10,205 bases of DNA from a virus (taxonomy: Duplodnaviria > Heunggongvirae > Uroviricota > Caudoviricetes). Positions 1 to 9,596 of this stretch are shown here, piece by piece. The position numbers and the translations under genes were made by a program. The first letter of the stretch is position 1. The number at the start of each line of letters is the position of its first letter. The notes under the pieces were generated by a model. That model saw only the letters and a program-made list of their open reading frames with translations. It searched no databases and was not told the DNA's origin. The stretch lies in IMG/VR virus record IMGVR_UViG_2724679140_000003, positions 1-10,205 of that record; one strand, given 5' to 3'.

Positions 1-345
1 GGCGGTGCGCATAGTCTCGTCACGATAGATGATCGGGGATTCAGTAACATTCACGCCGGAAGTGAACTCAAACAGGGTTCTGGCGTCGTTCTCGTACTGT
101 TTTCCCCAGGCCAGCGCCTTAGCGTTAACTTCCGGAGCCACACCGGTGCAAACCTCGGCAAGTAGGGTGTGGAAGTAGGACATTTTCATGTCAGGCCATT
201 TCTTTCCGGAGCGGGGTTTTGCTATCACGTTGTGAACTTCTGAAGCTGTGATGACGCCGAGCCGTAATTTGTGCCACGCATCATCCCCCTGCACGATAGC
301 TCTCACGTCGATCCCAGTACGCTGCAGGATAATGTTCGGTGTCAT
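1..345 (-). CDS. exo: Lambda-type exonuclease (Red alpha), N-terminal part; gene continues past the window edge
   Basis: Reverse-strand translation from ATG at 345..343 reads [115 protein letters not shown], which matches the lambda Exo N-terminus as I recall it. About 115 codons are present, open to position 1. The ATG overlaps the in-frame bet stop (ATGA) as in lambda. Confidence 0.9.
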
Positions 346-412
346 ATTGCCACCTTCTGCTCTGCGGCTTTCTGTTTCAGGAATCCAAGAGCTTTCACTG
401 CTTCGGCCTGTT

Positions 413-1126
413 TCAGTTCTGACAATGCATGAATGTCGCGGCGAAATATCTGGGAACAGAGCGGCAATAAGTCGTCATCCCATGTTTTATCCGGGCGATC
501 AGCAGAGTGTTAATCTCCTGCATGGTTTCATCGTTAACCGGAGTGATGTCGCGTTCCGGCTGATGTTCTGCAGTGCATGCGGTATTTTCGACAATGCGCT
601 CGGCTTCATCCTTGTCATAGATACCAGCAAATCCGAAGGCCAGACGGGCACACTGAATCATGGCTTTATGCCGTAACATCCGTTTGGGATGCGACTGCCA
701 TGGTCCGATGATTTCTTTGCCTTCTCGGGTTTTGAATGGTTCGCGACGGCACTCATCCATCCACTCGGTAACGCAGATCGGATGATTACGGTCCTTGCGG
801 TAAATCCGGCATGTACATGATTCATTGTCCTGCTCAAAGTCCATGCCATCAAACTGCTGGTTTTCATTTATGATGCGGGACCAGCCATCAACGCCCACCA
901 CCGGAACAATGCCGTTCTGCTTATCAGGGAAGGCGTAAATCTCTTTCGTCCACGGATTAAGTCCGTACTGGTTGGCGACGATCAGCAGCGCGATGAATTG
1001 CGCATCGCTGGCATTACCTTTAAATGCCGTCTGGCGAAGAGTGGCGATCAGTTCCTGCGGGTCGACAGAATCCATGCCGACGCGTTCAGCCAGCTTCCCG
1101 GCCAGTGTTGCAAGTGCTGTACTCAT
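413..1126 (-). CDS. bet: Red beta (Bet) single-strand annealing protein, C-terminus altered by an apparent 1-bp deletion (likely pseudogene or truncated variant)
   Basis: The 237-aa ORF starts [26 protein letters not shown] and tracks recalled lambda Bet almost residue for residue up to [12 protein letters not shown], then reads [26 protein letters not shown] and stops. The other frame from about 503 down to 342 still encodes a Bet-like tail ([20 protein letters not shown]...[11 protein letters not shown]) ending in TGA that overlaps the exo ATG. Start ATG at 1126..1124 is preceded by GAGG. Confidence 0.85.
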
Positions 1127-1131
1127 TCGTT

Positions 1132-1431
1132 TTATACCTCTGAATCAATATCAACCTGGTGATGAGCAATGGTTTCAACCATGTACCGGATGTGCTCCGC
1201 CACGCGTTCTTGAAATTCAACATCGTCATCAAATGCGCGACTGATTGCCTGTTTGCTGGCACCGTGGCGTTGCAAATGGTCGATGCAGAGCGATTCAAAC
1301 AGGTGCTGGGGCAGACCTTTTTCCAGGTCGTCCGCCAGCTCCGTTTCTTTTTCTTCGCGAACGATTTGCTGGTAGTGGCGTGACCATGCCTGCTCTTCAA
1401 TGCGATCAAAAATTGGGCATGTACTCATCAT
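1132..1431 (-). CDS. gam: Gam-like RecBCD inhibitor (short GamS-type form, 99 aa)
   Basis: Translation [99 protein letters not shown] matches recalled lambda Gam closely from the GamS start onward. Sits directly upstream of bet on the same strand. GGGG-rich SD before the ATG. Confidence 0.9.
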
Positions 1432-3379
1432 CCGTCACCCCAAAATTTTCAAGTTTGTTTGCAATCATCATTGCAATACCCGGAATTAATGGCGCTGAGG
1501 CTATACCCGCAGGATTTGCACATAAACCGTAAACCGCTGCAATCACCACTTGTCTTTTCCAGTCGAGTTTTTCTAATGATGAAGCTGCTGCTTCGCCAGT
1601 TTCATCACTGCAATCGCGATGCGGATCGCTGCCATCGTTCTCCTTGTGCGGATGTTCAGCACCTTCCATTTCCTCCAGACCTTTTTCCTGATATTCATTC
1701 TGATTTTCTTCATTAAAGGTTTTCTGATACGTTGCGTCGCCCATCACCGCACCACAGTCAGGGCAGTTATCCCCGCCAGTCTGACCGCAGGCATTGCAGA
1801 CTATTTCCGGTTCCTGTTGCACTACTGGCTCAGGTTGTTTCGCATCCGGGCTGATTTTTTCCGTTTCTGGCTGGTTCTGGTACACAGAATCGCGAGTCTG
1901 GATCCCCTTAACCCATTTCGGATCGTTCGGGTCGCTAATTCCGTCAACAAATTCACCACGTGATGCAGCAAGCAATTTATCGGCATCGACAGGATTTTTT
2001 GATGGAATGTTTTTCCGGGCTTCATGGAGTTCTGCCCGCTTTTTCTGGTATTCCGCTTCAACAGGGTTTACCTGTGACTGAGCATCCAGCGGCTGCGTGT
2101 TCTGATGATGTTCAGCTGCATCCGGTTCCACTGTTTCAGCCGTTGCCTGTTCATGTGCCATTGCGCCAGATGGTTGCGGTTTTTCTTCATCATCCTGTTT
2201 TTCTTCTTCTGTTACACGCTGCGGCATCGGGGCAGAGGAGCGACCGCAGGCAATATCCACGATTTCCGGATCAGGGTTGGCATGATCGGTTTCAGTCAGT
2301 ACTTTGTTCAGATATTCAGTGACGTGCGCGGGGATGACCTCGATCCCAATTGGTGCTTCTTTTACGGACGCAACCACGATGGCGCGGGAATAATCCAGCC
2401 CGCCAGGCATGGTGATGAATTTGTCGCGGAAAACAGAAAAGGGCGGTTTATTTTCAGCGATAATTTCCTCAATGCGTTTAGCGTGTGCCGGATGAAGGTT
2501 ATAGATGTCCACGTCCATTGAACGGGCCAGTACGCCAGTGGCTACATCGCGCGCCAGTGACGTCAGATCGTGGACGAAACCTTTGCCGCGATCGGTGAGG
2601 TTCCCGCCGCCAGCATTAGCACCGGAAGCCGTGCGGGTGATACGTGAAACACGATTTCCTTTCATCCACTCTTTTGTCAGCAGACCGCGATCGGTGTAGT
2701 CAGTGCCCAGGTATGCTTCGAAAAAAGCAGTCATCAGCCCCAGGCTTGAATTGCCTGGATTAGGGAAAACTCTGTCAGTATCACGCACCAGTTTGTGGAG
2801 ATCGCGAATTTCCAGCGGATCGAGCAGGCTGGTTTTGTGGGAAACAGCCAGGGCAGTAACAGCTGGTAGTTCTTCAGCTCGTGCAATGTGTAATGCCTGG
2901 AGTTCGTCGCGTGAAACGTGCGTTACCGGTTTTTCGCTGCCGTGTTGAGCAAGCCAGCGAATGGGCAGCTCCTGACCGGAAATCGGGAGTAGCATATTCT
3001 CCTCAATCTCCGTCATGTCTTCGCCATTAACATTGGTATTGTCAGTGCTGGCTGGTTTGTCCTGCGCAGAGGATGAGGGCGCGATAAATACCATTGTGAT
3101 GCCATCTTCCCCGCCTTTTTCGTAACGGTTGCAGAATTCCGTATCAAATACGCCTTCTGGTGGAAGGTCATCAACAACGGGCAAATTGACGCGAACAGGT
3201 TTTTTAAAGTCATCTTCATCGTAGCCAGCATCGTCAATCGCAACAGCACCACGGGAGATGGCAATGGATAATTTTTTCGCTTCAGCCCAGTAGAAACCGC
3301 CTTTAATACCGAGACGTTTTCTTACTTTGTCATTTTTTGCTTCGTAATACAGTGAGTAAACTTGTTTATCGGTGCTCAT
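1406..3379 (-). CDS. Large hypothetical protein (657 aa): acidic low-complexity segments, CxxC-x7-CxxC zinc knuckle, hydrophobic C-terminal segment; function unknown
   Basis: Uninterrupted 1974-nt ORF. ATG at 3379..3377 preceded by TGAGG about 9 nt upstream. Zinc knuckle [16 protein letters not shown] at about residues 528-543. Hydrophobic stretch [30 protein letters not shown] near the C-terminus. The 3' end overlaps the gam start by 26 nt. No Walker A or other catalytic motif recognised by eye. Plus-strand ORFs across this span are antisense and spurious. Confidence 0.85.
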
Positions 3380-3447
3380 TGTTTTTTAACCTCAACTCAG
3401 ATTAAAATTAATGCGAGTGATGAATAAATGTCCCAGGTTCTTCACTC

Positions 3448-3479
3448 AGGCCTGCACAGTGTGCAGGCTTTCTTTTTTT
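3448..3479 (+). terminator. Intrinsic-terminator-like hairpin oriented for plus-strand transcription
   Basis: Perfect 8-bp stem GCCTGCAC / GTGCAGGC (3450-3457 / 3461-3468) with 3-nt loop AGT, followed on the plus strand by TTTCTTTTTTT. On the minus strand the hairpin is preceded by an A-tract and followed by non-U sequence, so it is not a canonical terminator for the surrounding minus-strand genes. Confidence 0.45.
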
Positions 3480-3754
3480 CAGATTTCACCTTTTAATTTC
3501 ATTGCAATCAGAGTTGCCAGAAATTCGGCTTTTTTTTCTGCGGGCAGATTCTTTCCTATGTGCACCAGACACATTTTTTTAACACCATCGTTAAGTGTTT
3601 TAACGTTGCCTGATGGACCGTCGATATCAACCACAGTGAATGGGGTTTCTTTATTTTCTGTTTTAATCACATAGCCAATACGCTTTCCTTCCAGATTAAC
3701 CTCATGAACAATGTCATCAGTAGTAACAACAGTGGCTTCATAACTGGTAATCAT
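3479..3754 (-). CDS. Small hypothetical protein (91 aa)
   Basis: ATG at 3754..3752 is preceded by a strong SD (TAAGGAGAAAAAC then ATG). Translation MITSYEATVVTTDDIVHEVNLEGKRIGYVIKTENKETPFTVVDIDGPSGNVKTLNDGVKKMCLVHIGKNLPAEKKAEFLATLIAMKLKGEI. The ORF-track start at 3802 has no SD. No family recognised. Confidence 0.75.
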   Translation of the reverse strand: MITSYEATVVTTDDIVHEVNLEGKRIGYVIKTENKETPFTVVDIDGPSGNVKTLNDGVKKMCLVHIGKNLPAEKKAEFLATLIAMKLKGEI

Positions 3755-3828
3755 GTTTTTCTCCTTAATTAAGGTTGAGAGAATCCCTGCCATTGCTGGC
3801 ATAAATTCAGTTTCGAATAGTCAGTTAA

Positions 3829-4110
3829 TTAAAGTTCGTGTGCCATCTGGTCTTTTTCGGCACATTGCTTACAGCAGTATTTATGCTCCTTACGTGCAAT
3901 AAGGGAACCGTGCATATAAATAATTTCAGCAGTAAAGGCTTTTTCAGGTTCAATTTGTTTATTACAGAGCGTATATGCACAGGGAATTAAATCCGGGTCC
4001 CCCTTTTGCTGGAGGATTTTTCTGATTCTCCACAGCCATTTTTTAATTCCGGTGTGACTGATGGTCTGCCTGGAGGCAGGCGTAAAACAATAATCAAGCA
4101 TGGGGTTCAT
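3829..4110 (-). CDS. Small cysteine-rich hypothetical protein (about 93 aa), possible zinc-binding
   Basis: ORF MDMNPMLDYCFTP...KYCCKQCAEKDQMAHEL with seven Cys. The GGAG SD at 4122..4119 is too close to the first ATG (4116) but well spaced (8 nt) from the second ATG at 4110, so 4110 is the preferred start. The SD overlaps the stop of the upstream Rha-like gene. Confidence 0.7.
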   Translation of the reverse strand: MNPMLDYCFTPASRQTISHTGIKKWLWRIRKILQQKGDPDLIPCAYTLCNKQIEPEKAFTAEIIYMHGSLIARKEHKYCCKQCAEKDQMAHEL

Positions 4111-4126
4111 ATCCATAGCTCCATTT

Positions 4127-4681
4127 TTATTTTAAGGAAAGCAACTGCTCTACGGTCATATTTTTAATTGCGCTCCGGTTTACAAGAGTCCAGCCTTGTT
4201 TCTTCAGATAAAACTGGAAGGTATCCAGGGTGCAGACCATTGCGCCGTCAGGAACGGTTTCAGTGAATTTGATATTGCCGTGTTCGTCGAGACGGATAAC
4301 CAGGGTGCGTCCGTCCCCGTGAATCATTTTGTCGGGAGACGGGGCGTTATTCTGGCGCAGTTCTGCTTCCATGCGGTCGAACTCAGCAATGTATGCCTCT
4401 TTAAATGCAGCGGCTTTTTTGCCAGTGAAGCCCATCACCAGGAAAACGAAGCCGTTTTTGGTGATTTGGTACATGGGGCGTTTTTCGCCTTTGGCGTCGG
4501 TGTAGGTAACGGGCGTAAAATTGCGCTCGTTAAAATCTTCAGAGCATTCTAGCGTTTCAATTTTGCGCAGAACGTCCTTGTGCATTTTGCGGAAGAACTC
4601 TGCAACCGCAACAGACGTAGTGACAGCGCGACCATTTTCGATGGTTACGTCAGGGTGAGAAAGGGTAGGGATAGTAGCCAT
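4127..4681 (-). CDS. Rha-family phage regulatory protein (184 aa short form; an in-frame upstream start at 4978 would give 283 aa)
   Basis: N-terminal motif RAVTTSVAVAEFFRKMHKDVLRKIE resembles the conserved core of the phage Rha domain (recalled pattern ...VAE.FGKRHDNVLRDI). ATG at 4681..4679 has SD AAGAGG about 8 nt upstream and puts the motif at the usual N-terminal position. The longer in-frame ORF from 4978 contains an intrinsic terminator, so the short form is preferred. Confidence 0.75.
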   Translation of the reverse strand: MATIPTLSHPDVTIENGRAVTTSVAVAEFFRKMHKDVLRKIETLECSEDFNERNFTPVTYTDAKGEKRPMYQITKNGFVFLVMGFTGKKAAAFKEAYIAEFDRMEAELRQNNAPSPDKMIHGDGRTLVIRLDEHGNIKFTETVPDGAMVCTLDTFQFYLKKQGWTLVNRSAIKNMTVEQLLSLK

Positions 4682-4847
4682 AATGGCAGCCTCTTGGTTA
4701 AGTATTAATAACTCACCACCAAGGTTTTCCACGACCATAAGGGTGGTGAGACGTACAGGGGTGGAAATACCGGTCAACCAAGAATCCGGCCAGCCTTGCA
4801 GCTGCCCTGCACGCCCCACCATAATCTGAATGTGGCTGTGCTTGACG

Positions 4848-4873
4848 CATAAAAAAACCGCCTGAGCGCGGTT
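4848..4873 (-). terminator. Intrinsic terminator (minus strand)
   Basis: Minus-strand RNA reads AACCGC-GCUCAG-GCGGUU followed by UUUUUAUG: a 6-bp stem, 6-nt loop and 7-U tract counting the stem Us. Lies between the DicF-like element and the Rha-like gene start. Confidence 0.5.
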
Positions 4874-5146
4874 ATGCGCTTGATTGAATTCCGGGTTTCC
4901 ACGCCCGGCACCCGTTTTATGAGGTGCAGGTGCACTATAATTCCACCCGTTCTGGTTTTCAATAGCTACATTCAACATTTTCTCTACCTTTCATCACCGA
5001 AGTGAACTTTGTTGATGCGGTGCCTGGTGCCTCCAGGTGACGTTAACCAGTTAACAATTAACGCCGGATAATCCACCCATAACACTGATGCTTTTAACTG
5101 TTCCGCGTGCGCTTAGCCGCATTCACCGCATCACAAAATTCACTTT

Positions 5147-5215
5147 AAAAAGGGCGGACATCAGCCGAACTTCAAGAAAAAAACTGATGCCGCCAAGACT
5201 ACACACAGCAGTGTT
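5147..5215 (-). ncRNA. DicF-like small RNA with terminator hairpin (5' end uncertain)
   Basis: Minus strand reads ...CUGCUGUGUGUAGUCUUGGCGGCAUCAGUUUUUUUCUUGAAGUUCGGCUGAUGUCCGCCCUUUUU. Long hairpin GGCGGCAUCAG / CUGAUGUCCGCC (plus-strand 5153..5194) followed by a U-tract. The segment UUGGCGG(C)AUCAGUUUU and the CCGCCC-UUUUU 3' end match E. coli DicF as I recall it. Position after the repressor and tiny ORFs mirrors the Qin dicA-ydfABC-dicF layout. Confidence 0.45.
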
Positions 5216-5392
5216 GTTATTCACAACCGGAGGCGCACTCCCACCATTTAAATTTAACAGACAAGACCGACTCTTTATGGATACCGGAAATGCGCCTTCG
5301 TGTTGTGCCCGGTTTTATTTCACCACCTCCGGGCTTTGGTGGCCTCGGCTATACCCCTACAGCAAGAATATTGAATTAATCCAATAAATGGT

Positions 5393-5545
5393 TTAGCTGG
5401 TATTTTTGGCAAGCCAGCGACGTGCGCCAGCTTCGGTTTTAAACGATTTGCTTTTGGTATACGTCATGGCGGTGAACGTTCCATCCTGGTTGGGGAACAC
5501 GCCACACACCAGGGATTCGTTGTTGCCGAGGTCGATTTTTTGCAT
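5393..5545 (-). CDS. Small hypothetical protein (50 aa), YdaF/YdfA-like position in the operon
   Basis: ATG at 5545..5543 preceded by SD GAGGG. Translation MQKIDLGNNESLVCGVFPNQDGTFTAMTYTKSKSFKTEAGARRWLAKNTS. Length and position resemble the tiny genes following racR or dicA in Rac and Qin; sequence identity not verified. The ORF-track version (87 aa from 5656) runs through the upstream gene in another frame. Confidence 0.6.
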   Translation of the reverse strand: MQKIDLGNNESLVCGVFPNQDGTFTAMTYTKSKSFKTEAGARRWLAKNTS

Positions 5546-5556
5546 TTTGGGAACCC

Positions 5557-5691
5557 TCACATCTTGTTGTTGCGGATAGAGGCTTCTGCCTGCCAGAGAT
5601 CCCAGTCGTTGCTGCGTAGAGCCTGTACAGCTTGGCTGTAAGTGATGCCGCAACAATCCATCAAATACTGAACTACTTCGTAATGCACCAT
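5557..5691 (-). CDS. Small hypothetical protein (44 aa), YdaG/YdfB-like position; not in the supplied ORF track
   Basis: ATG at 5691..5689 preceded by strong SD (AAAGGGAGAGAUAAA then AUG). Translation MVHYEVVQYLMDCCGITYSQAVQALRSNDWDLWQAEASIRNNKM. Stop TGA at 5559..5557 overlaps the SD of the next gene, suggesting translational coupling. Confidence 0.6.
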   Translation of the reverse strand: MVHYEVVQYLMDCCGITYSQAVQALRSNDWDLWQAEASIRNNKM

Positions 5692-5757
5692 TTTATCTCT
5701 CCCTTTAACGCCGGGTGGCGGAACTAAAACCTACAGCGCCGTGCTGTTCTTGATAGA

Positions 5758-5786
5758 ATATTAGTAACACGGATATTTTAAGTCAA
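5758..5786 (-). promoter_or_regulatory. Candidate sigma70 promoter for the leftward early operon
   Basis: Minus strand: -35 TTGACT (5786..5781), 17-nt spacer, -10 TAATAT (5763..5758). Lies downstream of the repressor terminator and about 65 nt upstream of the 44-aa gene. Confidence 0.45.
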
Positions 5787-5883
5787 CAGTATGGCGTATG
5801 ATATTTTTGATTTAGTAACTATGTAAATGTTTTTTCAAGGGAAAAATATTAGTTATACAGCTGATTTTCAGAAGTTATGGCAC

Positions 5884-5913
5884 AAAAAAACCGACTAAGA
5901 CGTCGGTTTTTTG
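5884..5913. terminator. Bidirectional intrinsic terminator downstream of the repressor gene
   Basis: AAAAAAA-CCGAC-UAAGAC-GUCGG-UUUUUUG: stem AACCGAC / GTCGGTT (5889-5895 / 5902-5908), 6-nt loop, A7 tract upstream and T6 tract downstream. About 25 nt past the repressor stop on the minus strand. Confidence 0.6.
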
Positions 5914-5938
5914 TTGTGGATGGGGTAGTGAGTGGTGG

Positions 5939-6400
5939 CTACTGGTTACGTTTCTTTAGTGCCAGCATGTTCTCGAAGGCTTCCTCGTAGAGCTTGTTTA
6001 GTCCACGTAGCTGGTTAAGGAGTTTGGCTTTTTCTGACGCAGGTAGAATCTCGAAGAGGTTAAGTAACTCAGCCTGTTCTTCATTGACCAGCCTCCATCC
6101 TTTGCCTGAAAAGCTATCATCATAAGTATCTGATGATCTTACATAATTCATTAAGTCTTTAAGGTCTTCTCGAATGTCCTCTGGTTTTACCTTTAACAGA
6201 GCCGCAAATTTTAGCGCAGCGTCGGTATTTACCGGTATCTTGCCGTTCAGATACTGGCTAACGGTGCCTTGAGATTCGAATCCCAACAACTCAGCCGCCA
6301 GCTCTTGAGTCAGCTTCAGCTCTTTTTTTCTTGCATTCCATGCGGCTTTTAAATTCTTGCTCGCTTCTGGAGTTGCAATCACTTCGCGTGTTTTTTTCAT
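5939..6400 (-). CDS. DicA/RacR-type prophage repressor (XRE-family HTH, 153 aa, no S24 peptidase domain)
   Basis: HTH segment LTQELAAELLGFESQGTVSQYLNGKIPVNTDAALKFAALLKV. C-terminal segment EEQAELLNLFEILPASEKAKLLNQLRGLNKLYEEAFENMLALKKRN resembles the recalled DicA C-terminus. Divergent from a Cro-like gene. Weak or absent SD. Confidence 0.85.
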   Translation of the reverse strand: MKKTREVIATPEASKNLKAAWNARKKELKLTQELAAELLGFESQGTVSQYLNGKIPVNTDAALKFAALLKVKPEDIREDLKDLMNYVRSSDTYDDSFSGKGWRLVNEEQAELLNLFEILPASEKAKLLNQLRGLNKLYEEAFENMLALKKRNQ

Positions 6401-6448
6401 ACATAGAGTTTATTTGTTTTACCAATATTATCAAAGATAGTCTGACTG

Positions 6449-6477
6449 TTGATCTTTAAAATTAGTGGGGCTAATAT
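6449..6477 (+). promoter_or_regulatory. Candidate rightward early promoter within the divergent repressor/cro intergenic region
   Basis: -35 TTGATC (6449-6454), 17-nt spacer, -10 TAATAT (6472-6477), about 30 nt upstream of the cro-like start. Imperfect inverted repeat TCAAAGAT (6431-6438) / ATCTTTAA (6452-6459) overlaps the -35 and may be an operator. Confidence 0.5.
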
Positions 6478-6507
6478 TTGCTCGAGGCATAACGTAGAAG
6501 GTTGGCT

Positions 6508-6783
6508 ATGAACTTAAGAGACTATTTAAAAGAGAAACATATCACCCAGTTACAGTTTGGGAAGCTAACGGGTTTATCTCAGGTGCATGTAAGTCGAGTG
6601 CTGGGGGGCTATGAAAGATTCAGCCCTGAAAAAGCATTACGTGTTGCTGAAGTAACGAATTTCGAGGTTACACCTCATGAACTCCGGCCTGATATCTACC
6701 CGAATCCGACCGATGGTTTACCTGTTGGATGTAAGGCTAACACACAAAATGCACAGGAGTTGATTCATGAAAATCAGGCATGA
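6508..6783 (+). CDS. Cro-like regulator, YdaS/DicC family (91 aa from ATG; the ORF track uses TTG at 6502)
   Basis: ATG at 6508 preceded by GAAGG 7 nt upstream. Translation MNLRDYLKEKHITQLQFGKLTGLSQVHVSRVLGGYERFSPEKALRVAEVTNFEVTPHELRPDIYP... has an HTH and the C-terminal pattern typical of YdaS-family proteins. Divergent from the repressor. Confidence 0.85.
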   Translation: MNLRDYLKEKHITQLQFGKLTGLSQVHVSRVLGGYERFSPEKALRVAEVTNFEVTPHELRPDIYPNPTDGLPVGCKANTQNAQELIHENQA

Positions 6784-7189
6784 GCACATCGAATCAGTGT
6801 TGTTAGCCCTAGCCGCTGAAAAAGGGCAGGCGTGGGTCGCTAACGCAATTACTGAAGAATATCTCCGCCAGGGGGGAGGTGAATTGTCTCTGACACCAGG
6901 CAAGGACTGGAACAATCAGCAGAACATCTATCGCCGTTGGTTAAAAGGTGAAACGGAAGCGCAAAGGGAAAAAATTCAGAAGCTGATCCCAGCAATTCTG
7001 GCAATCCTTCCGCGGGAGCTGCGTCACCGACTCTGCATCTTCGATACCCTGGAACGCCGTGCATTACTGGCGGCGCAGGAGGCGTTGAGTACGGCAATTG
7101 ATGCGCATGATGATGCAGTCCAGGCCGTTTACCGGAAAGCGCATTTCAGCGGCGGCGGGTCTTCCGACGATTCTGTCATTGTTCATTAA
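6767..7189 (+). CDS. YdaT-like protein (140 aa), proposed CII-like regulator in Rac-type prophages
   Basis: Starts MKIRHEHIESVLLALAAEKG..., resembling the recalled N-terminus of Rac YdaT (MKIKHEHI...). AGGAG SD 7 nt upstream. Overlaps the cro-like gene by 17 nt. Confidence 0.8.
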   Translation: MKIRHEHIESVLLALAAEKGQAWVANAITEEYLRQGGGELSLTPGKDWNNQQNIYRRWLKGETEAQREKIQKLIPAILAILPRELRHRLCIFDTLERRALLAAQEALSTAIDAHDDAVQAVYRKAHFSGGGSSDDSVIVH

Positions 7190-7252
7190 GCAAAAGTTTC
7201 CATGCTGTTTGTGCTTATTCTAAGCCACCGGGCAGCATCATACGGGGCAATT

Positions 7253-8059
7253 ATGGCCGCATTACCATACATGCAACTGTACATAGCTGATTACCTGGCT
7301 GACACCATGCATTTGTCAGCAGAGGAGCATGGTGCGTATTTGTTGCTGATGTTCAATTACTGGCAAACAGGAAAGCCAATACCTAAAAACAGGCTGGCAA
7401 AAATTGCCCGTCTGACTAACGAGCGATGGGCTGATGTTGAACCATCCTTGCAGGAGTTTTTTTGCGATAACGGCGAGGAATGGGTGCATCTTCGGATTGA
7501 GGAAGATCTGGCATCAGTCAGGGAAAAATTAACCAAAAAATCAGCCGCAGGAAAAGCATCTGTTCAGGCCAGAAGAAGCAGAAAGGAAGCTGATGTTCAA
7601 ACAAAACAAGAGAGAAATTTAACAGGTGTTCAAACAGATGTTGAAGTGGTGTTTGAACATGATGTCAACACAAAGGCAACTAATAAAGATACAGATAAAG
7701 ATCTAAAAACAGATCCCCCCCTAAATCCCCCCCGGGGGAATCGAGGTGTCAAAAAGTTTGACCCTCTGGATATTGTTTTGCCGAACTGGATTTCTGTCTC
7801 GCTTTGGCGTGAGTGGGTTGAATTTCGCCAGGCATTGCGAAAACCGATTCGAACGGAGCAGGGCGCTAACGGGGCGATACGGGAACTGGAAAAATTCCGT
7901 CAGCAGGGTTTTACACCTGAGCAGGTGATTCGACACAGCATCGCCAATGAATACCAGGGCCTGTTCGCGCCGAAAGGTGTTCGGCCTGAGACGTTGCTCC
8001 GACAGGTTAACACCGTCTCGTTGCCGGACAGTGCGATCCCGCCTGGCTTCAGGGGGTAA
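7253..8059 (+). CDS. DUF1376 (YdaU-like) replication initiation protein, O-like (269 aa; alternative in-frame start at 7202)
   Basis: N-terminal MAALPYMQLYIADYLADTMHLSAEEHGAYLLLMFNYWQTGKPIP matches the conserved DUF1376 signature (YM.LYI.DYL.DT..LS.EEHGAYL.L). Followed immediately by a DnaC-like gene. ATG at 7253 has GGGG upstream. Confidence 0.85.
   Translation: MAALPYMQLYIADYLADTMHLSAEEHGAYLLLMFNYWQTGKPIPKNRLAKIARLTNERWADVEPSLQEFFCDNGEEWVHLRIEEDLASVREKLTKKSAAGKASVQARRSRKEADVQTKQERNLTGVQTDVEVVFEHDVNTKATNKDTDKDLKTDPPLNPPRGNRGVKKFDPLDIVLPNWISVSLWREWVEFRQALRKPIRTEQGANGAIRELEKFRQQGFTPEQVIRHSIANEYQGLFAPKGVRPETLLRQVNTVSLPDSAIPPGFRG
7556..7672. repeat. Iteron-like repeats inside the DUF1376 gene followed by an AT-rich stretch: candidate replication origin
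   Basis: Repeats of about 10 bp related to TGTTCAAACA at roughly 34-35 bp spacing: cTGTTCAggc (7560), gaTGTTCAAACA (7592), ggTGTTCAAACA (7626), inverted TGTTTGAACA (7651), gaTGTCAACA (7661), plus ggTGTCAAAAA further on at 7747. AT-rich 7672-7712 follows. Confidence 0.4.
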
Positions 8060-8065
8060 CAGACC

Positions 8066-8812
8066 ATGAAAAATATTGCGACAGGAGGCGTTCTGGAGCG
8101 TATCCGCAGACTGACCCCACCACATGTAACCGCCCCATTCAGAACGGTTGCGGAGTGGCGCGAGTGGCAACTTGCTGAAGGCCAGAAACGTAGTGAGGAG
8201 ATCAACCGCCTGAATCGCCAGTTGCGGGTGGAAAAAATTCTGAATCGCTCAGGCATCCAGCCGTTGCACCGTAAATGCTCGTTTGCGAATTACCAGGTGC
8301 AGAACGACGGCCAGCGATACGCGTTAAGCCAGGCGAAATCCATCGCCGATGAACTGATGACCGGGTGTACAAATTTTGCGTTCAGCGGAAAACCTGGTAC
8401 CGGGAAGAATCACTTAGCGGCAGCTATCGGGAATCGCCTGCTGAAAGACGGTCAGACAGTGATTGTGGTTACCGTGGCTGATGTTATGAGTGCTCTACAC
8501 GCCAGCTATGACGACGGGCAATCAGGCGAAAAATTTTTGCGGGAACTGTGCCAAGTGGATCTGCTGGTTCTTGATGAAATTGGCATTCAGCGCGAGACAA
8601 AAAACGAGCAGGTGGTGCTGCACCAGATTGTTGATCGCCGGACAGCGTCGATGTGCAGCGTGGGGATGCTGACAAACCTGAACTATGAGGCCATGAAAAC
8701 ATTGCTCGGCGAGAGGATTATAGATCGCATGACCATGAACGGCGGGCGATGGGTGAATTTTAATTGGGAGAGCTGGCGTCCGAATGTCGTCCAGCCAGGA
8801 ATTGCGAAGTGA
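8066..8812 (+). CDS. DnaC-like helicase loader / IstB-like AAA+ ATPase (YdaV-like replication protein, 248 aa)
   Basis: Walker [16 protein letters not shown] and Walker B LLVLDEIG. Recognisable DnaC-family layout. ATG at 8066 with GGGGG SD. Directly downstream of the O-like gene. Confidence 0.9.
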
Positions 8813-8834
8813 TTTTTACCGGGAGGAAATTTTA

Positions 8835-8984
8835 ATGGAAACCGTTTTTGATGCACTGAAAGCAATGGGAAAAGCCACGTCGGTAGAACTGGCTGCGCGA
8901 CTTGATATCAGTCGTGAAGAAGTGCTGAACGAGCTGTGGGAACTGAAAAAGGCTGGATTCGTTGATAAAAGCGCGTACACCTGA
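8835..8984 (+). CDS. Small winged-helix-like protein (49 aa)
   Basis: Strong SD GGGAGG 8 nt before ATG at 8835. Translation [49 protein letters not shown] looks like an HTH. Ends with TGA at 8982-8984, in frame with the next ORF. Confidence 0.6.
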
Positions 8985-8987
8985 CGT

Positions 8988-9596
8988 GTGGCCGATAACA
9001 ACGTTCAGCAGGAACATCCAGTGCCGGAAGAACAGCCGGAAGAAATCGCCACGGCAACAGTAGCGAAAATCTCAGAGTGCGATTTAACCGCGACGATTGA
9101 ACAACGCGGACCACAAACGGCGGATGAACTGGCTACGCTGTTCGGTACCACATCCCGCAAAGTTGCTTCAACGCTGGCAATGGCAATCAGCAAAGGACGC
9201 CTGATTCGCGTAAATCAGAACGGTAAATTTCGTTACTGCATGCCGGGCGGTAATTTACCAGCAGAGCCGAAAGCTGCATCGGTAGCGGAAACTGATGGTA
9301 AAGCCTTTCCTCAGCCTGCATGTGTTGTTTTACCAGTACAGGAGGCTGCAATACAGGAAGAAATTAAAACAGAAACTGTGGCGGACATTGTGCAGCCGCT
9401 GCCATCGTTCACTGAAACGCGAGCAGATGACCTGGTTTTACCATCGCTGCATATGGCAAACCGCGAACTGCGTCGGGCGAAAAGTCATGTCCAGAAGTGG
9501 GAGCGAGTCTGCGCCGCGCTGCGTGAGCTGAACAAGCACCAGGATATTGTCCGTCAGATTGTCGATTCCTCCAGTCGTATTGTGTCGGAAAAGTGA
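8988..9596 (+). CDS. Hypothetical protein (202 aa) with a second HTH-like segment; GTG start, or a readthrough extension of the preceding ORF
   Basis: Long ORF in the same frame as 8835..8984. First codon GTG at 8988 with no convincing SD. Contains [32 protein letters not shown], which resembles the HTH of the upstream 49-aa ORF. Confidence 0.7.

Follow-up and report, generated by a model that had tools for sequence, protein, structure and literature searches.

The window, a 10,205-nt stretch of viral DNA, is the early region of KingRac, a Rac-family lambdoid E. coli prophage in which the lambda-type Red genes are probably reached mainly from PisrK, a promoter inside the leftward operon, under the gating of the small RNAs IsrK and C4 and also of Rho. 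With slightly better than even confidence, we propose that transcription gets to Red by passing terminators in a regulated manner rather than through processive antitermination, in a phage with swapped modules. The window matches positions 1393752-1403957 of NZ_CP054665.1 (E. coli IGC_EcoliInv_1.1) with two base differences, and the RefSeq annotation places the prophage at ttcA (the Rac site) with intR/xisR/ralR in its flanks. The KingRac prophage was published by Frazao et al. 2019 (PMC6731689). It is mitomycin-inducible, with weak induction, produces virions and lysogenises new hosts (PMC6731689); its early genes therefore work without N. All the parts are known, the mosaic is ordinary, and the finding as a whole is largely ordinary.

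Lambda Red genes on a Rac-family backbone

The left arm carries the following genes.

1 to 345, minus strand: exo, 5' part (lambda exonuclease), with a YqaJ domain; the gene continues past the left window edge
342 to 1126, minus strand: bet (lambda Bet/RecT family), with a RecT Pfam match
1132 to 1431, minus strand: gam (host-nuclease inhibitor), Pfam Gam, E=1.2e-57
1406 to 3379, minus strand: recE' (657 aa), Pfam Exonuc_VIII
3479 to 3754, minus strand: racC homologue (91 aa, no known function), phrog_4778
3829 to 4116, minus strand: YdaE-family zinc-binding protein (95 aa), RefSeq name

When the window was compared with lambda using blastn, 92.8 % nucleotide identity was observed over nt 1-1407, and YdaT, YdaU and YdaV are 95-99 % identical to their Rac counterparts. 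Both results confirm the mosaic proposed in a preliminary description of this DNA, namely a lambda Red module on a Rac-family backbone. Its wording that Exo, Bet and Gam are near-identical to lambda fits Exo (96.5 % amino acid identity over 115 aa; named 'lambda exonuclease family' in RefSeq) and Bet (97 % over the first 211 aa) but is generous for Gam (82.7 %).

The recE' product comprises RecE residues ~43-587 (the N-terminal part only, 84.6 % identical to K-12 RecE 43-587) and an unrelated tail of ~59 aa; gam-bet-exo takes the place of recT and of the RecE nuclease domain. The blastn blocks (1-1407 to lambda, 1585-3041 to Rac) place the joint between 1407 and 1585. This joint recurs in 25 complete genomes of E. 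coli as well as in Stx phages, and Shigella phage 75/02 Stx has the same recE'-gam-bet-exo layout; judging from these sequences, the joint is not peculiar to the window. Farther upstream in the operon, the RacC homologue shares 96.7 % identity with K-12 RacC and the YdaE-family protein shares 54 % with K-12 YdaE over 52 aa.

Compared with NZ_CP054665.1, a 1-nt deletion at 493 shifts the reading frame of the window bet and leaves ORFs 413-1126 and 342-467. Such damage would suit the alternative that Red, like everything else in the distal left arm, is essentially unexpressed cargo, with terminators and Rho blocking nearly all transcription. The phage cycle would then use host recombination and a separate int/xis promoter, and no mechanism would need explaining. 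The weak induction of KingRac, a DUF1627 gene that is already a pseudogene in the RefSeq annotation, the strong look of the terminators and the Rac kilR leader, kept off via NusG (both treated below), are consistent with it as well. However, RefSeq has an intact bet (261 aa) for this very strain, and the frameshift may therefore reflect a difference in sequencing or assembly; apart from it, the reading frames of Exo, Bet, Gam and the 657-aa protein are conserved and intact. The RecE'-Gam-Bet-Exo block is moreover maintained in active Stx phages, and excision and the formation of new lysogens need xis and int, two genes at the far end of this same strand. We consider silence of the distal arm unlikely.

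Immunity region and the search for N

The immunity region, the genes past pL and the right-arm core are as follows.

5393 to 5548, minus strand: ydaF homologue (51 aa), Pfam DUF1391
5557 to 5691, minus strand: ydaG homologue (44 aa, UBA-like), UBA_4 and phrog_14709, function unknown
5757 to 5827, minus strand: candidate pL promoter(s) from the promoter scan, TTGACT-17-TAATAT at 5786-5758 and TTTACA-18-TATCAT at 5827-5798
5885 to 5912, no strand assigned: strong bidirectional-type terminator with a perfect 11-nt inverted repeat, predicted to end the repressor transcript, upstream of pL
5939 to 6400, minus strand: prophage repressor, DicA-like, Pfam HTH_3 only, with a DicA-type C-terminal helix
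6407 to 6478, no strand assigned: putative divergent control region
6434 to 6407, minus strand: predicted pRM-like promoter, ending 7 nt ahead of the repressor ATG
6449 to 6477, plus strand: candidate pR, predicted, TTGATC-17-TAATAT
6508 to 6783, plus strand: Cro-like HTH protein (YdaS family), Pfam YdaS_toxin and HTH_3
6767 to 7189, plus strand: YdaT (CII-like activator), Pfam YdaT_toxin and phrog_163, CII-like
7202 to 8059, plus strand: YdaU (DUF1376 replication initiator-like), Pfam match
8066 to 8812, plus strand: YdaV (DnaC/IstB-like helicase loader), Pfam IstB_IS21

The regulatory core had been described as Rac-type. This holds for YdaT, the DUF1376 protein YdaU and the DnaC-like YdaV (95 %, 99.3 % and 95.2 % amino acid identity with K-12, respectively), but the immunity cassette (about 5728-6760) is not that of Rac, since the repressor shares 23 % identity with RacR and the Cro-like protein 32 % with YdaS. 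The latter is closer to Gifsy-1 Cro (47 %). The repressor was rejected as a RacR and is DicA-like, as had been proposed: it aligns end to end with DicA (28 % identity over 117 aa), shares 33 % with the C-terminus of the Gifsy-1 repressor and has no S24 peptidase (cleavage) domain in Pfam. It resembles DicA and the Gifsy repressors, which are under antirepressor control. Pfam also agrees with the YdaS-like, YdaT, DUF1376 and IstB/DnaC-like domains named earlier.

On the pL side, the YdaF homologue is 92 % identical to YdaF and 84 % to Qin YdfA, and the YdaG homologue is 91 % identical to K-12 YdaG. The repeat AATATTAGT overlaps the -10 element of candidate pL; repeat family D1 and the inverted repeats I1, I2 and I6 connect 5757, 5845, 6411-6429 and 6445-6478; and two inverted copies of the motif AATATT lie within 6407-6478. 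The terminator at 5885-5912 folds with -17.2 kcal/mol (z=-6.8).

No N gene and no nut boxes had been reported, and the searches bear this out. Pfam and PHROGs gave no N family match in left- or right-arm ORFs, and boxA-like words are about as frequent as expected by chance (28 vs 27.4), with none downstream of pL or pR. The first gene past pL, ydaG, has the position of N in lambda, but its product is not N-like. The annotations of Rac, Qin and Gifsy-1 contain no N gene either. How transcription reaches Red, previously posed as an open question, can on our analysis be answered from precedent and is not a strong anomaly, because these three lack an annotated N and KingRac is a working phage.

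Small RNA genes and a proposed route to Red

Between ydaF and ydaE' the minus strand carries a series of RNA elements and one gene.

5147 to 5244, minus strand: KilS sRNA orthologue (DicF-like) with intrinsic terminator, 94/98 nt identical to K-12 kilS b4833
5008 to 5140, minus strand: conserved leader (STnc100-like), Rfam STnc100 at 42.1 bits, under the gathering score of 47
4934 to 4962, minus strand: PisrK, predicted sigma-70 promoter TTGAAA-17-TATAGT, 10/12 matches in the promoter scan
4851 to 4927, minus strand: IsrK sRNA with intrinsic terminator, Rfam RF01394 at 69.2 bits vs a gathering score of 50
4739 to 4826, minus strand: C4/CI-type antisense RNA (= STnc1160 of Gifsy-1), Rfam RF01695 at 76.7 bits vs a gathering score of 45
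4127 to 4681, minus strand: Rha-family regulator, candidate antirepressor (184 aa), Phage_pRha in Pfam, Rha-like/anti-repressor families in PHROGs

The two minus-strand intrinsic terminators noted in the preliminary description are real hairpins with U tracts, ending at 5147 and 4851 (there 4848). They had been seen as puzzling obstacles to Red transcription; by homology they are instead the 3' ends of sRNA genes, the first that of the KilS/DicF-like gene (5244-5147) and the second the terminator of IsrK (4927-4851). On the minus strand, the KilS stem (-19.5 kcal/mol) is followed by CUUUUU (C, U5), and the terminator scan and fold place the IsrK stem at 4873-4856 with a U-run (U7-8) to 4851. 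Both seem efficient on paper, given the long GC-rich stem and the run of 7-8 U.

The KilS orthologue scores 42.6 bits against the DicF Rfam model, under the gathering score of 48. In K-12, KilS was verified by northern blot and an independent promoter was suggested. In a three-way alignment the leader at 5008-5140 precedes kilR in Rac and dicB in Qin, and this homology ends at about 5000, where the isrK module follows. Rac kilR is turned on by lowering NusG, i.e. by loss of Rho-dependent termination, so its leader is silenced via NusG and, by implication, Rho. In Qin, two transcripts were detected, one of 1,146 nt that stops at dicF and one of 1,608 nt that reads through and covers ydfABC-dicFB-ydfD.

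The -10 element of PisrK stops 7 nt short of the IsrK 5' end, and promoter-like hexamers align with those of PisrK, give or take a few columns, in the Q-side copy of KingRac, Gifsy-1 and Stx2a_1447. The Gifsy-1 isrK promoter is experimentally defined and drives IsrK and the downstream gene; downstream transcription through the IsrK terminator amounts to 280 vs 3 Miller units with vs without the promoter, and translation of the downstream gene is off until IsrK acts in trans (PMC4825925). IsrK and STnc1160 are highly transcribed in lysogens. A check for additional promoters had been advised, and PisrK (4962-4934), supported by prediction and homology, is at that level the kind of promoter the preliminary description allowed it might have missed. 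As whole-window counts of the promoter and terminator scans are at chance level (9 promoters found vs 10.7 expected), individual sites rest on context and homology.

Promoters nearer Red, in the 99-nt gap 3380-3478 before recE' or upstream of racC', might act independently of pL and PisrK. Intergenic gaps do exist at 3380-3478 and 3755-3828, the first being structured (z=-3.6), and weak or activator-dependent promoters would evade a consensus scan. That scan, however, gave no minus-strand promoter-like site between 1 and 4900, and the hairpin at 3448-3470 has the orientation of a terminator for the plus strand. The homologous region of K-12 is not known to drive recET expression. We find such promoters improbable as the route to Red.

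The C4-type RNA sits between IsrK and the Rha gene and folds with -44.8 kcal/mol (z=-3.95). The loop of its hairpin 2, AUUCUUGGUUGA, has complementary partners in the rha Shine-Dalgarno region (4699-4692; -12.4 kcal/mol) and in the IsrK linker (-9.5 kcal/mol). When four homologous loci were compared, the triple complementarity of C4 loop, IsrK linker and ribosome-binding region was found to co-vary. In all four, the strongest linker partner of the loop is its own; its own ribosome-binding region is also the strongest, except for the Stx2a_1447 loop, which prefers the Gifsy-1 region (-17.2 vs -15.0). KingRac has a second, orthogonal IsrK-C4-antirepressor copy after a Q-like gene (L001 33436-33625), and its two copies do not cross-pair (-3.6 and -1.1 kcal/mol).

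The rha gene starts at ATG 4681, with the Shine-Dalgarno sequence AAGAGG at 4695-4690, and the RefSeq start at 4978 is probably wrong. An orf45-type AUG at 4822 is in frame with rha, so a 231-aa form of Rha is possible. The antirepressor role of Rha is a guess, because the likeness to Gifsy-1 AnrP is 24 % identity over the C-terminal 72 aa only and the N-terminal domains differ.

We propose that the RecE nuclease domain and RecT were swapped for lambda Gam-Bet-Exo and kilR for the riboregulated IsrK-C4-Rha module. Leftward transcription would not form one N-antiterminated operon but would use up to three promoters, namely pL beside the repressor gene, a KilS promoter, which we infer from K-12, and PisrK. 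A fraction of the polymerases would pass each sRNA terminator, as in the Qin and Gifsy-1 homologues, to give a short sRNA and a long mRNA. A polymerase that starts at PisrK is already past the KilS terminator and would have just the IsrK terminator to cross before rha, ydaE', racC', recE' and gam-bet-exo; the terminator scan and folds gave no further strong or convincing minus-strand intrinsic terminator between 4680 and 1. The C4-type RNA would be processed from the read-through transcript and would pair with the rha Shine-Dalgarno region as a post-transcriptional gate, and short IsrK, having the same target sequence, could compete for the C4 loop. Left untranslated, the long RNA should then be open to Rho, a situation known from P4 and P1 and demonstrated for the Rac kilR leader. 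Read-through at 5147 and 4851 is argued from the homologues and may be very low, since K-12 Rac is known not to express recET until an sbcA mutation has arisen.

Alternatively, an unrecognised processive antitermination device might replace N in Rac/Gifsy-type phages. It could be one of the small early proteins YdaG, YdaF, RacC and YdaE, or else an RNA in the KilS-leader-IsrK-C4 cluster that acts in cis and modifies RNA polymerase in the manner of HK022 put. KingRac is functional without N; ydaG and ydaF, the first genes after pL, have no known function and are conserved in Rac, with the YdaF homologue YdfA in Qin; and ~700 nt of structured, untranslated RNA lie between ydaF and rha. Within IsrK there is a 15/16-nt match to the HK022 putR core (blastn-short E=0.07), reached by 0/1000 shuffles in a pairwise test. 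This match is, however, short, with an E-value that is not significant for the search space; the matching bases have an upstream-strand partner in IsrK but a downstream-strand partner in put, and putL has no match to this IsrK copy. Profile searches gave no N, Q or put family match in the left arm, YdaG and YdaF have no arginine-rich motif, no put-like two-stem element (~70 nt) follows pL or pR, and shuffled versions of the pL leader fold at least as well as the leader itself (z=+0.48). Terminator read-through in Qin and Gifsy-1 was observed with no N or other such factor invoked. We give antitermination little credence.

Comparison with known systems

As in lambda (pL-N-nutL), a leftward early operon leads from beside the repressor gene to gam-bet-exo and xis/int with terminators between, and the repressor mRNA appears leaderless like that of lambda pRM; the window differs in lacking N, boxA/boxB, cIII, kil, ral and sieB. 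HK022, too, is lambdoid, does without an N-type antiterminator protein and has promoter-proximal structured RNA, whereas of put the window has only the 15/16-nt word, in another pairing context.

Rac of K-12 and KingRac share the attachment site with intR/xisR/ralR, the order repressor, ydaG, ydaF, KilS, then racC and recE on the left and ydaT-U-V-W on the right, 88-95 % nucleotide identity with the window in five blocks, and the lack of an annotated N gene. They differ in the immunity cassette, in sieB and kilR, which KingRac lacks (PisrK-IsrK-C4-rha stands in place of kilR), and in Gam-Bet-Exo in place of the RecE nuclease domain and RecT; Rac is defective, whereas KingRac is complete and inducible. 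Qin dicBF and Rac KilS-kilR have a nearly identical terminator hairpin base, U tract and leader of ~150 nt. Qin also shares the DicA-type repressor, pL-like promoter, DUF1391 gene, sRNA, downstream gene, documented read-through and lack of N, but the window sRNA body is KilS-like and not DicF, with a different 5' seed region, and the isrK module follows where Qin and Rac have a cell-division inhibitor gene.

In P1/P7 immI (c4-icd-ant) and P4 (CI/seqA-seqC), as here, a C4/CI-family RNA (RF01695) lies inside the transcript under its control, and its loop is complementary to one upstream and one downstream site; the latter takes in the first gene's ribosome-binding site, and an antirepressor-type gene comes after it. 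The C4/CI RNA immunity of P1 and P4 involves RNase P processing and Rho-dependent termination (partly from the discussion in PMC4825925). In contrast, the window C4 has one evident recognition loop (hairpin 1 is a tetraloop), there is no icd homologue, and the element lies within a lambdoid pL-side operon.

The Gifsy-1 isrK-orf45-anrP locus (Hershko-Shalev et al. 2016, PMC4825925) shares the promoter, IsrK, a leaky terminator, the C4-like STnc1160 containing the leader-ORF AUG, and an antirepressor-type gene, and the Rfam models match both loci. The Gifsy-1 module is located after Q and not in the left operon, unlike the window copy; its effector is ORF6N-type instead of Rha-type, its leader ORF ends at the start codon instead of being fused in frame, and its recognition loop has another sequence. 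The Gifsy-1 layout is reproduced by the second KingRac copy.

Identity and mosaic structure of the prophage

The window matches positions 1393752-1403957 of NZ_CP054665.1 from E. coli IGC_EcoliInv_1.1, an 'invader' clone of the Gordo laboratory, and the prophage is the already published KingRac, inserted at ttcA, the Rac site. KingRac is Rac-related, is weakly induced by mitomycin C, forms virions seen by electron microscopy and lysogenised new hosts in the mouse gut (PMC6731689). It serves as an experimental model of phage-driven gene transfer in the mouse gut. The prophage continues to the left of the window with intR, xisR, ralR/RalA and a DUF1187 gene, and to the right with a Q-like gene, tRNAs, lysis genes and lambda-like head genes. 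The RalR/RalA type I toxin-antitoxin pair (Rfam RalA, 219.6 bits) lies immediately left of exo, at 18261-18439 of L001 (the larger KingRac sequence beyond the window, with its own coordinates); similarly, it adjoins recT in K-12 Rac. No tRNA or tmRNA was found in the scan.

When the window was compared with lambda and Rac, nucleotides 1-1407 were lambda-like (92.8 % identity) and K-12 Rac matched elsewhere in five blocks with 88-95 % nucleotide identity.

Blocks of the window matching K-12 Rac
1585-3041, recE
3372-3882, start of recE, racC and part of ydaE
5000-5367, kilS and kilR leader
5414-5727, ydaF and ydaG
6761-9284, ydaT to ydaW

Of the features of the Rac family, integration at ttcA with IntR/XisR and the ydaT-U-V-W replication block (95-99 % amino acid identity) are present, but the RacR/YdaS immunity and RecE/RecT recombination of Rac are absent. 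RecT is missing, and the immunity cassette (approximately 5728-6760) is not that of Rac, as its repressor shares 23 % identity with RacR and its Cro 32 % with YdaS. The claim of a lambda Red module on a Rac-family backbone thus stands, and the term 'Rac-type' is correct for replication but not for immunity. To call the repressor 'DicA-like' was apt, since it aligns lengthwise with DicA (28 % over 117 aa). In the case of the DUF1627 (ydaW-like) gene (8784-9596), a stop codon splits the gene into ORFs 8784-8984 and 8988-9596, and it is a pseudogene in RefSeq.

The gam-bet-exo order of lambda is kept. The products had been described as near-identical to those of lambda, which is true for Exo (96.5 %) and Bet (97 % up to a frameshift) but generous for Gam (82.7 %). 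The frameshift in bet (342-1126) follows residue 211 and results from a 1-nt deletion at 493 relative to NZ_CP054665.1, in which Bet is an intact protein of 261 aa; the deletion may be genuine or may stem from sequencing or assembly. The only other position differing from the RefSeq record, 8747, is synonymous and lies in ydaV. Upstream of gam, the 657-aa protein (RecE') begins with a counterpart of RecE residues 43-587 (84.6 % identity) and ends in about 59 aa unrelated to RecE, so that the RecE nuclease domain and RecT are replaced by Gam-Bet-Exo. An identical RecE'-Gam-Bet-Exo layout is found in Shigella phage 75/02 Stx, and among 5426 complete E. coli genomes, 25 contain the joint seen in the window. 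The bet frameshift, together with the weak induction, would fit Red genes that are effectively silent cargo. We consider this rather unlikely, because the RefSeq record has an unbroken bet, active phages have kept the block, and xis and int are located further along the same strand.

Small RNAs between ydaF and rha

When the untranslated stretch of about 700 nt between ydaF and rha was scanned with Rfam, four elements were observed, all on the minus strand.

Rfam elements between ydaF and rha
5207-5152 (-), DicF-like RNA, 42.6 bits (gathering score 48)
5140-5008 (-), STnc100-like leader, 42.1 bits (gathering score 47)
4927-4851 (-), IsrK, 69.2 bits (gathering score 50), full length (1-77)
4826-4739 (-), C4 antisense RNA, 76.7 bits (gathering score 45), positions 1-87/87

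The two terminators noted earlier between pL and the Red genes are both real, but they are not unexplained obstacles: 5147 is the exact 3' end of KilS, and 4848 is the IsrK terminator. Nucleotides 5244-5147 are the orthologue of K-12 kilS (b4833; 94 of 98 nt identical), and the flanks are conserved from 5367 to 5000. The element was not assigned to DicF (RF00039), as 42.6 bits is below the gathering score and its 5' half is unlike K-12 DicF. In K-12, KilS is a northern-verified sRNA from Hfq RIL-seq data, possibly with its own promoter. The terminator and the next 150 nt or so are almost identical in Rac (before kilR), Qin (the dicF-dicB interval) and the window. The leader that follows matches the STnc100 family partially, and three tandem full-length STnc100 copies (86-105 bits) are found downstream of the prophage tRNA cluster (L001 35456-36813, plus strand). 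In 63/5426 complete E. coli genomes the KilS leader is joined to the isrK module as it is here.

Both IsrK (RF01394) and C4 (RF01695) were covariance-model matches above the gathering score, and IsrK ends in an intrinsic terminator (a stem followed by U7-8). A search for additional promoters upstream of the Rha-like gene had been suggested, and it yielded a predicted promoter, PisrK (TTGAAA-17-TATAGT, 4962-4934), whose end is 7 nt from the IsrK 5' end. Over the whole window, the generic scans for promoters and terminators gave counts at chance level. Promoter-like hexamers (TTGACT/TATATT, TTGACA/TATATT and TTGATT/TACACT) occupy the equivalent position in the three further isrK loci that were examined, those of KingRac Q-side, Gifsy-1 and Stx2a_1447.

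Hairpin 2 of C4 carries the loop AUUCUUGGUUGA, which is complementary to the Shine-Dalgarno region of rha, AACCAAGA (4699-4692; also given as CUUAACCAAGAGG; -12.4 kcal/mol) and to the single-stranded IsrK linker UUCAAUCAAGC (-9.5 kcal/mol). The loop, the upstream site and the downstream site co-vary across the four homologues. Each C4 loop pairs best with its own IsrK linker, and also with its own ribosome-binding region except for the Stx2a_1447 loop, which pairs better with the Gifsy-1 region (-17.2 versus -15.0 kcal/mol for its own). These are loop-only comparisons, used because full-length C4 RNAduplex runs against the flanks gave uninformative whole-length duplexes. A loop with one upstream and one downstream target is the arrangement of P1 c4 and P4 CI. 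The C4/CI RNAs of P1/P7 and P4 are processed from the primary transcript by RNase P, and they couple a translational block with premature Rho-dependent termination.

The AUG of Gifsy-1 'orf45' sits in the 5' strand of the C4 stem, and its counterpart in the window, 4822, is in frame with rha. The 45-aa ORF at 4850-4713 was rejected as the orf45 equivalent, because alignment with Gifsy-1 gives the AUG at 4822, in another frame. In Stx2a_1447 the leader AUG also runs in frame into rha, and the leader ORFs of the KingRac Q-side copy (31 codons) and Gifsy-1 (45 codons) are in other frames. Since length and frame vary among the four homologues, the peptide is not conserved and the RNA is. This bears on the annotation. 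The RefSeq 283-aa 'Rha family' CDS (4127-4978, WP_061892275.1) starts upstream of predicted PisrK and spans IsrK, its terminator and C4, and Pfam Phage_ASH (PF10554) matches its residues 14-109, which are the translation of the IsrK/C4 RNAs. As the leader ORFs of the homologues differ (fused, fused, 31 aa and 45 aa), the 'Ash' domain here resembles translated non-coding RNA. The RefSeq CDS, and probably the Pfam Ash family, read across two sRNA genes and a terminator.

A second IsrK-C4 pair is located at L001 33436-33625 (plus strand), between the Q-like gene (DUF1133, phrog_753) and the gene of an ORF6N antirepressor that follows. In location and effector this copy reproduces the Gifsy-1 antQ-isrK-anrP layout, with a leader ORF of 31 aa. 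The left copy differs from Gifsy-1, in which a coupled 45-codon leader ORF and the AnrP antirepressor follow antQ, as it lies in the early-left operon and its Rha shares only 24 % identity with the AnrP C-terminus. The isrK-C4-Rha block is also present in many Stx2a phages. The loop and targets of the second copy (UUUCCGUAC / UACGGAG) are unlike those of the left copy, and cross-pairing reaches only -3.6 and -1.1 kcal/mol. Judged from this weak pairing, the two KingRac copies should be orthogonal, with no cross-reaction.

Transcription of the left arm

No ORF matched an N-family protein in Pfam or PHROGs, and boxA-like words, with two mismatches allowed, occurred at chance rate (28 versus 27.4 expected), with none at 5757-5692 or after cro. 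The earlier statement that N and nut are lacking is therefore borne out. No N-like small ORF was present among the ORFs of at least 20 aa listed between the repressor gene and rha, and the interval from pL to ydaG contained no other minus-strand ORF of at least 20 aa. The first genes from pL, in the position of N, correspond to ydaG (44 aa, UBA-like) and ydaF (DUF1391). The pL leader contains a single hairpin (5747-5733, loop ACGGC), which does not resemble boxB, and the 65-nt leader folds no better than shuffled sequence (z = +0.48). In Rac, Qin and Gifsy-1, too, no N gene is annotated. The Q-like antiterminator (phrog_753) of the prophage is encoded outside the window.

The put element looked for was an RNA of about 70 nt with two stems, lying directly behind pL and some 270 nt behind pR. 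HK022 putL and putR were extracted from the phage record by aligning its pL region with its post-cro region. When these two reference sequences were compared with the window using blastn-short, only words of 8-16 nt were found, none of them after pL or pR. The best word (15/16 nt, 4899-4914, minus strand; E = 0.07) lies inside IsrK and corresponds to the HK022 putR core CGGGUGCC(C/G)GGCGUGG, and in a pairwise test it was reached by 0 of 1000 shuffles. Considering its E-value and pairing partners that differ from those of put, we judged it probably a chance match in this comparison with two reference put sequences. Gifsy-1 and Q-side IsrK carry, at the matching position, a 9-mer that also occurs in putL. 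A processive antiterminator that has escaped recognition, whether a protein or an RNA, is improbable: the first left-arm genes, whose function is unknown, and the short put-like word would speak for it, but beyond these there is no pointer.

Equally doubtful are undetected promoters closer to Red, as the additional-promoter search, which included the region upstream of the 657-aa gene, found none. Between rha and Red no convincing leftward terminator was found. The perfect 10-bp hairpin at 3448-3470, between racC' and recE', has a U tract on the plus strand alone and was therefore rejected as a third terminator of leftward transcription; it would stop transcripts that run antisense to the left operon, and it lies inside the segment 3372-3882 (88 % nucleotide identity to K-12 Rac).

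Leftward transcription would start at pL, probably at a KilS promoter, and at PisrK. The KilS and IsrK terminators would each give a short sRNA and let a fraction of the polymerases through. Such leakiness is seen in homologues: in Qin, without involvement of N, one transcript of 1,146 nt stops at dicF, and another of 1,608 nt (ydfABC-dicFB-ydfD) continues past it. Lysogens contain large amounts of IsrK and STnc1160. Starting from PisrK, polymerase would meet a single terminator before rha, ydaE', racC', recE', gam, bet and exo. Read-through is likewise documented for Gifsy-1, where transcription of the downstream gene measured 280 Miller units with the isrK promoter and 3 without it, and the downstream mRNA stays untranslated until IsrK acts in trans (PMC4825925). 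C4 bound at the rha Shine-Dalgarno region would prevent translation of the long RNA, which would then be accessible to Rho. The kilR gene of K-12 Rac, located behind the same leader, is turned on when NusG is lowered. In that prophage recET is activated by sbcA mutations. Given terminators that leak in homologues, an internal promoter and C4 gating, we lean towards reading the left arm as a riboregulator-gated read-through system and not as an N-type antiterminated operon. The apparent anomaly of terminators without N would then give way to a mostly conventional model of leaky sRNA terminators, an internal promoter and C4/IsrK riboregulation.

More speculatively, and with a low probability in our estimate, an as yet unrecognised device within the KilS-leader-IsrK-C4 RNA cluster would take the N-less phages of Rac/Gifsy/Qin type to their distal early-left genes. 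It may be a put-like, cis-acting RNA making polymerase resistant to terminators, or it may be a P4-style RNA 'immunity' switch between termination and read-through for the whole Red/xis/int operon. If so, the pair of orthogonal IsrK-C4 copies would keep early-left control and late control in step.

Immunity, induction and relation to known systems

The 153-aa repressor contains an HTH domain without an S24 peptidase domain, and the sequence to the left of its gene contains the following features.

Features between the repressor gene and the left arm
5885-5912, strong terminator of the repressor transcript, upstream of pL (-17.2 kcal/mol)
5786-5758 and/or 5827-5798 (-), candidate pL; a AATATTAGT repeat overlaps the -10 and is inverted at the pR side

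A motif containing AATATT(A/G)G occurs four times around the repressor gene (5757-5770, 5845-5858, 6411-6429 and 6445-6478), two per side and in opposite orientation. Candidate pL and pR have TAATAT as their -10 hexamer, and two of the copies overlap these hexamers; the copies are candidate operator half-sites. A pRM-like promoter (TTGATA-16-TAAACT, 6400-6434, minus strand) ends 7 nt before the repressor ATG, so the repressor mRNA may be leaderless, as is lambda cI mRNA from pRM.

No exact LexA box (CTGT-N8-ACAG with AT-rich spacer) was found in the window or in L001 16000-48206, which covers the prophage up to its far right end, and one-mismatch matches in the window and the prophage part of L001 occurred at chance rate. 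SOS control was rejected on these grounds. A repressor that does not cleave itself, the control of DicA and Gifsy repressors by antirepressors and the lack of a LexA box together suggest to us that Rha may act as an antirepressor. Mitomycin induction of KingRac is stronger when the Nef prophage is also present (PMC6731689), which hints that an antirepressor of another prophage may induce KingRac in trans. The KingRac switch appears to combine a non-cleavable DicA-type repressor with two RNA-gated antirepressor-type genes and no LexA box, and this combination helps to explain the weak mitomycin induction.

As far as the literature consulted shows, there is no description of an IsrK-C4-Rha module that takes the place of kilR within the early-left operon, of two orthogonal IsrK-C4 copies in one prophage, or of an annotated Rha CDS that swallows the IsrK/C4 RNAs. 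What is known of antitermination is unchanged by these results. The element belongs to known kinds and its mechanism is not new. Its components, namely the Rac backbone, lambda Red, KilS/DicF, IsrK, C4/CI, Rha and the DicA-type repressor, all come from families already described.
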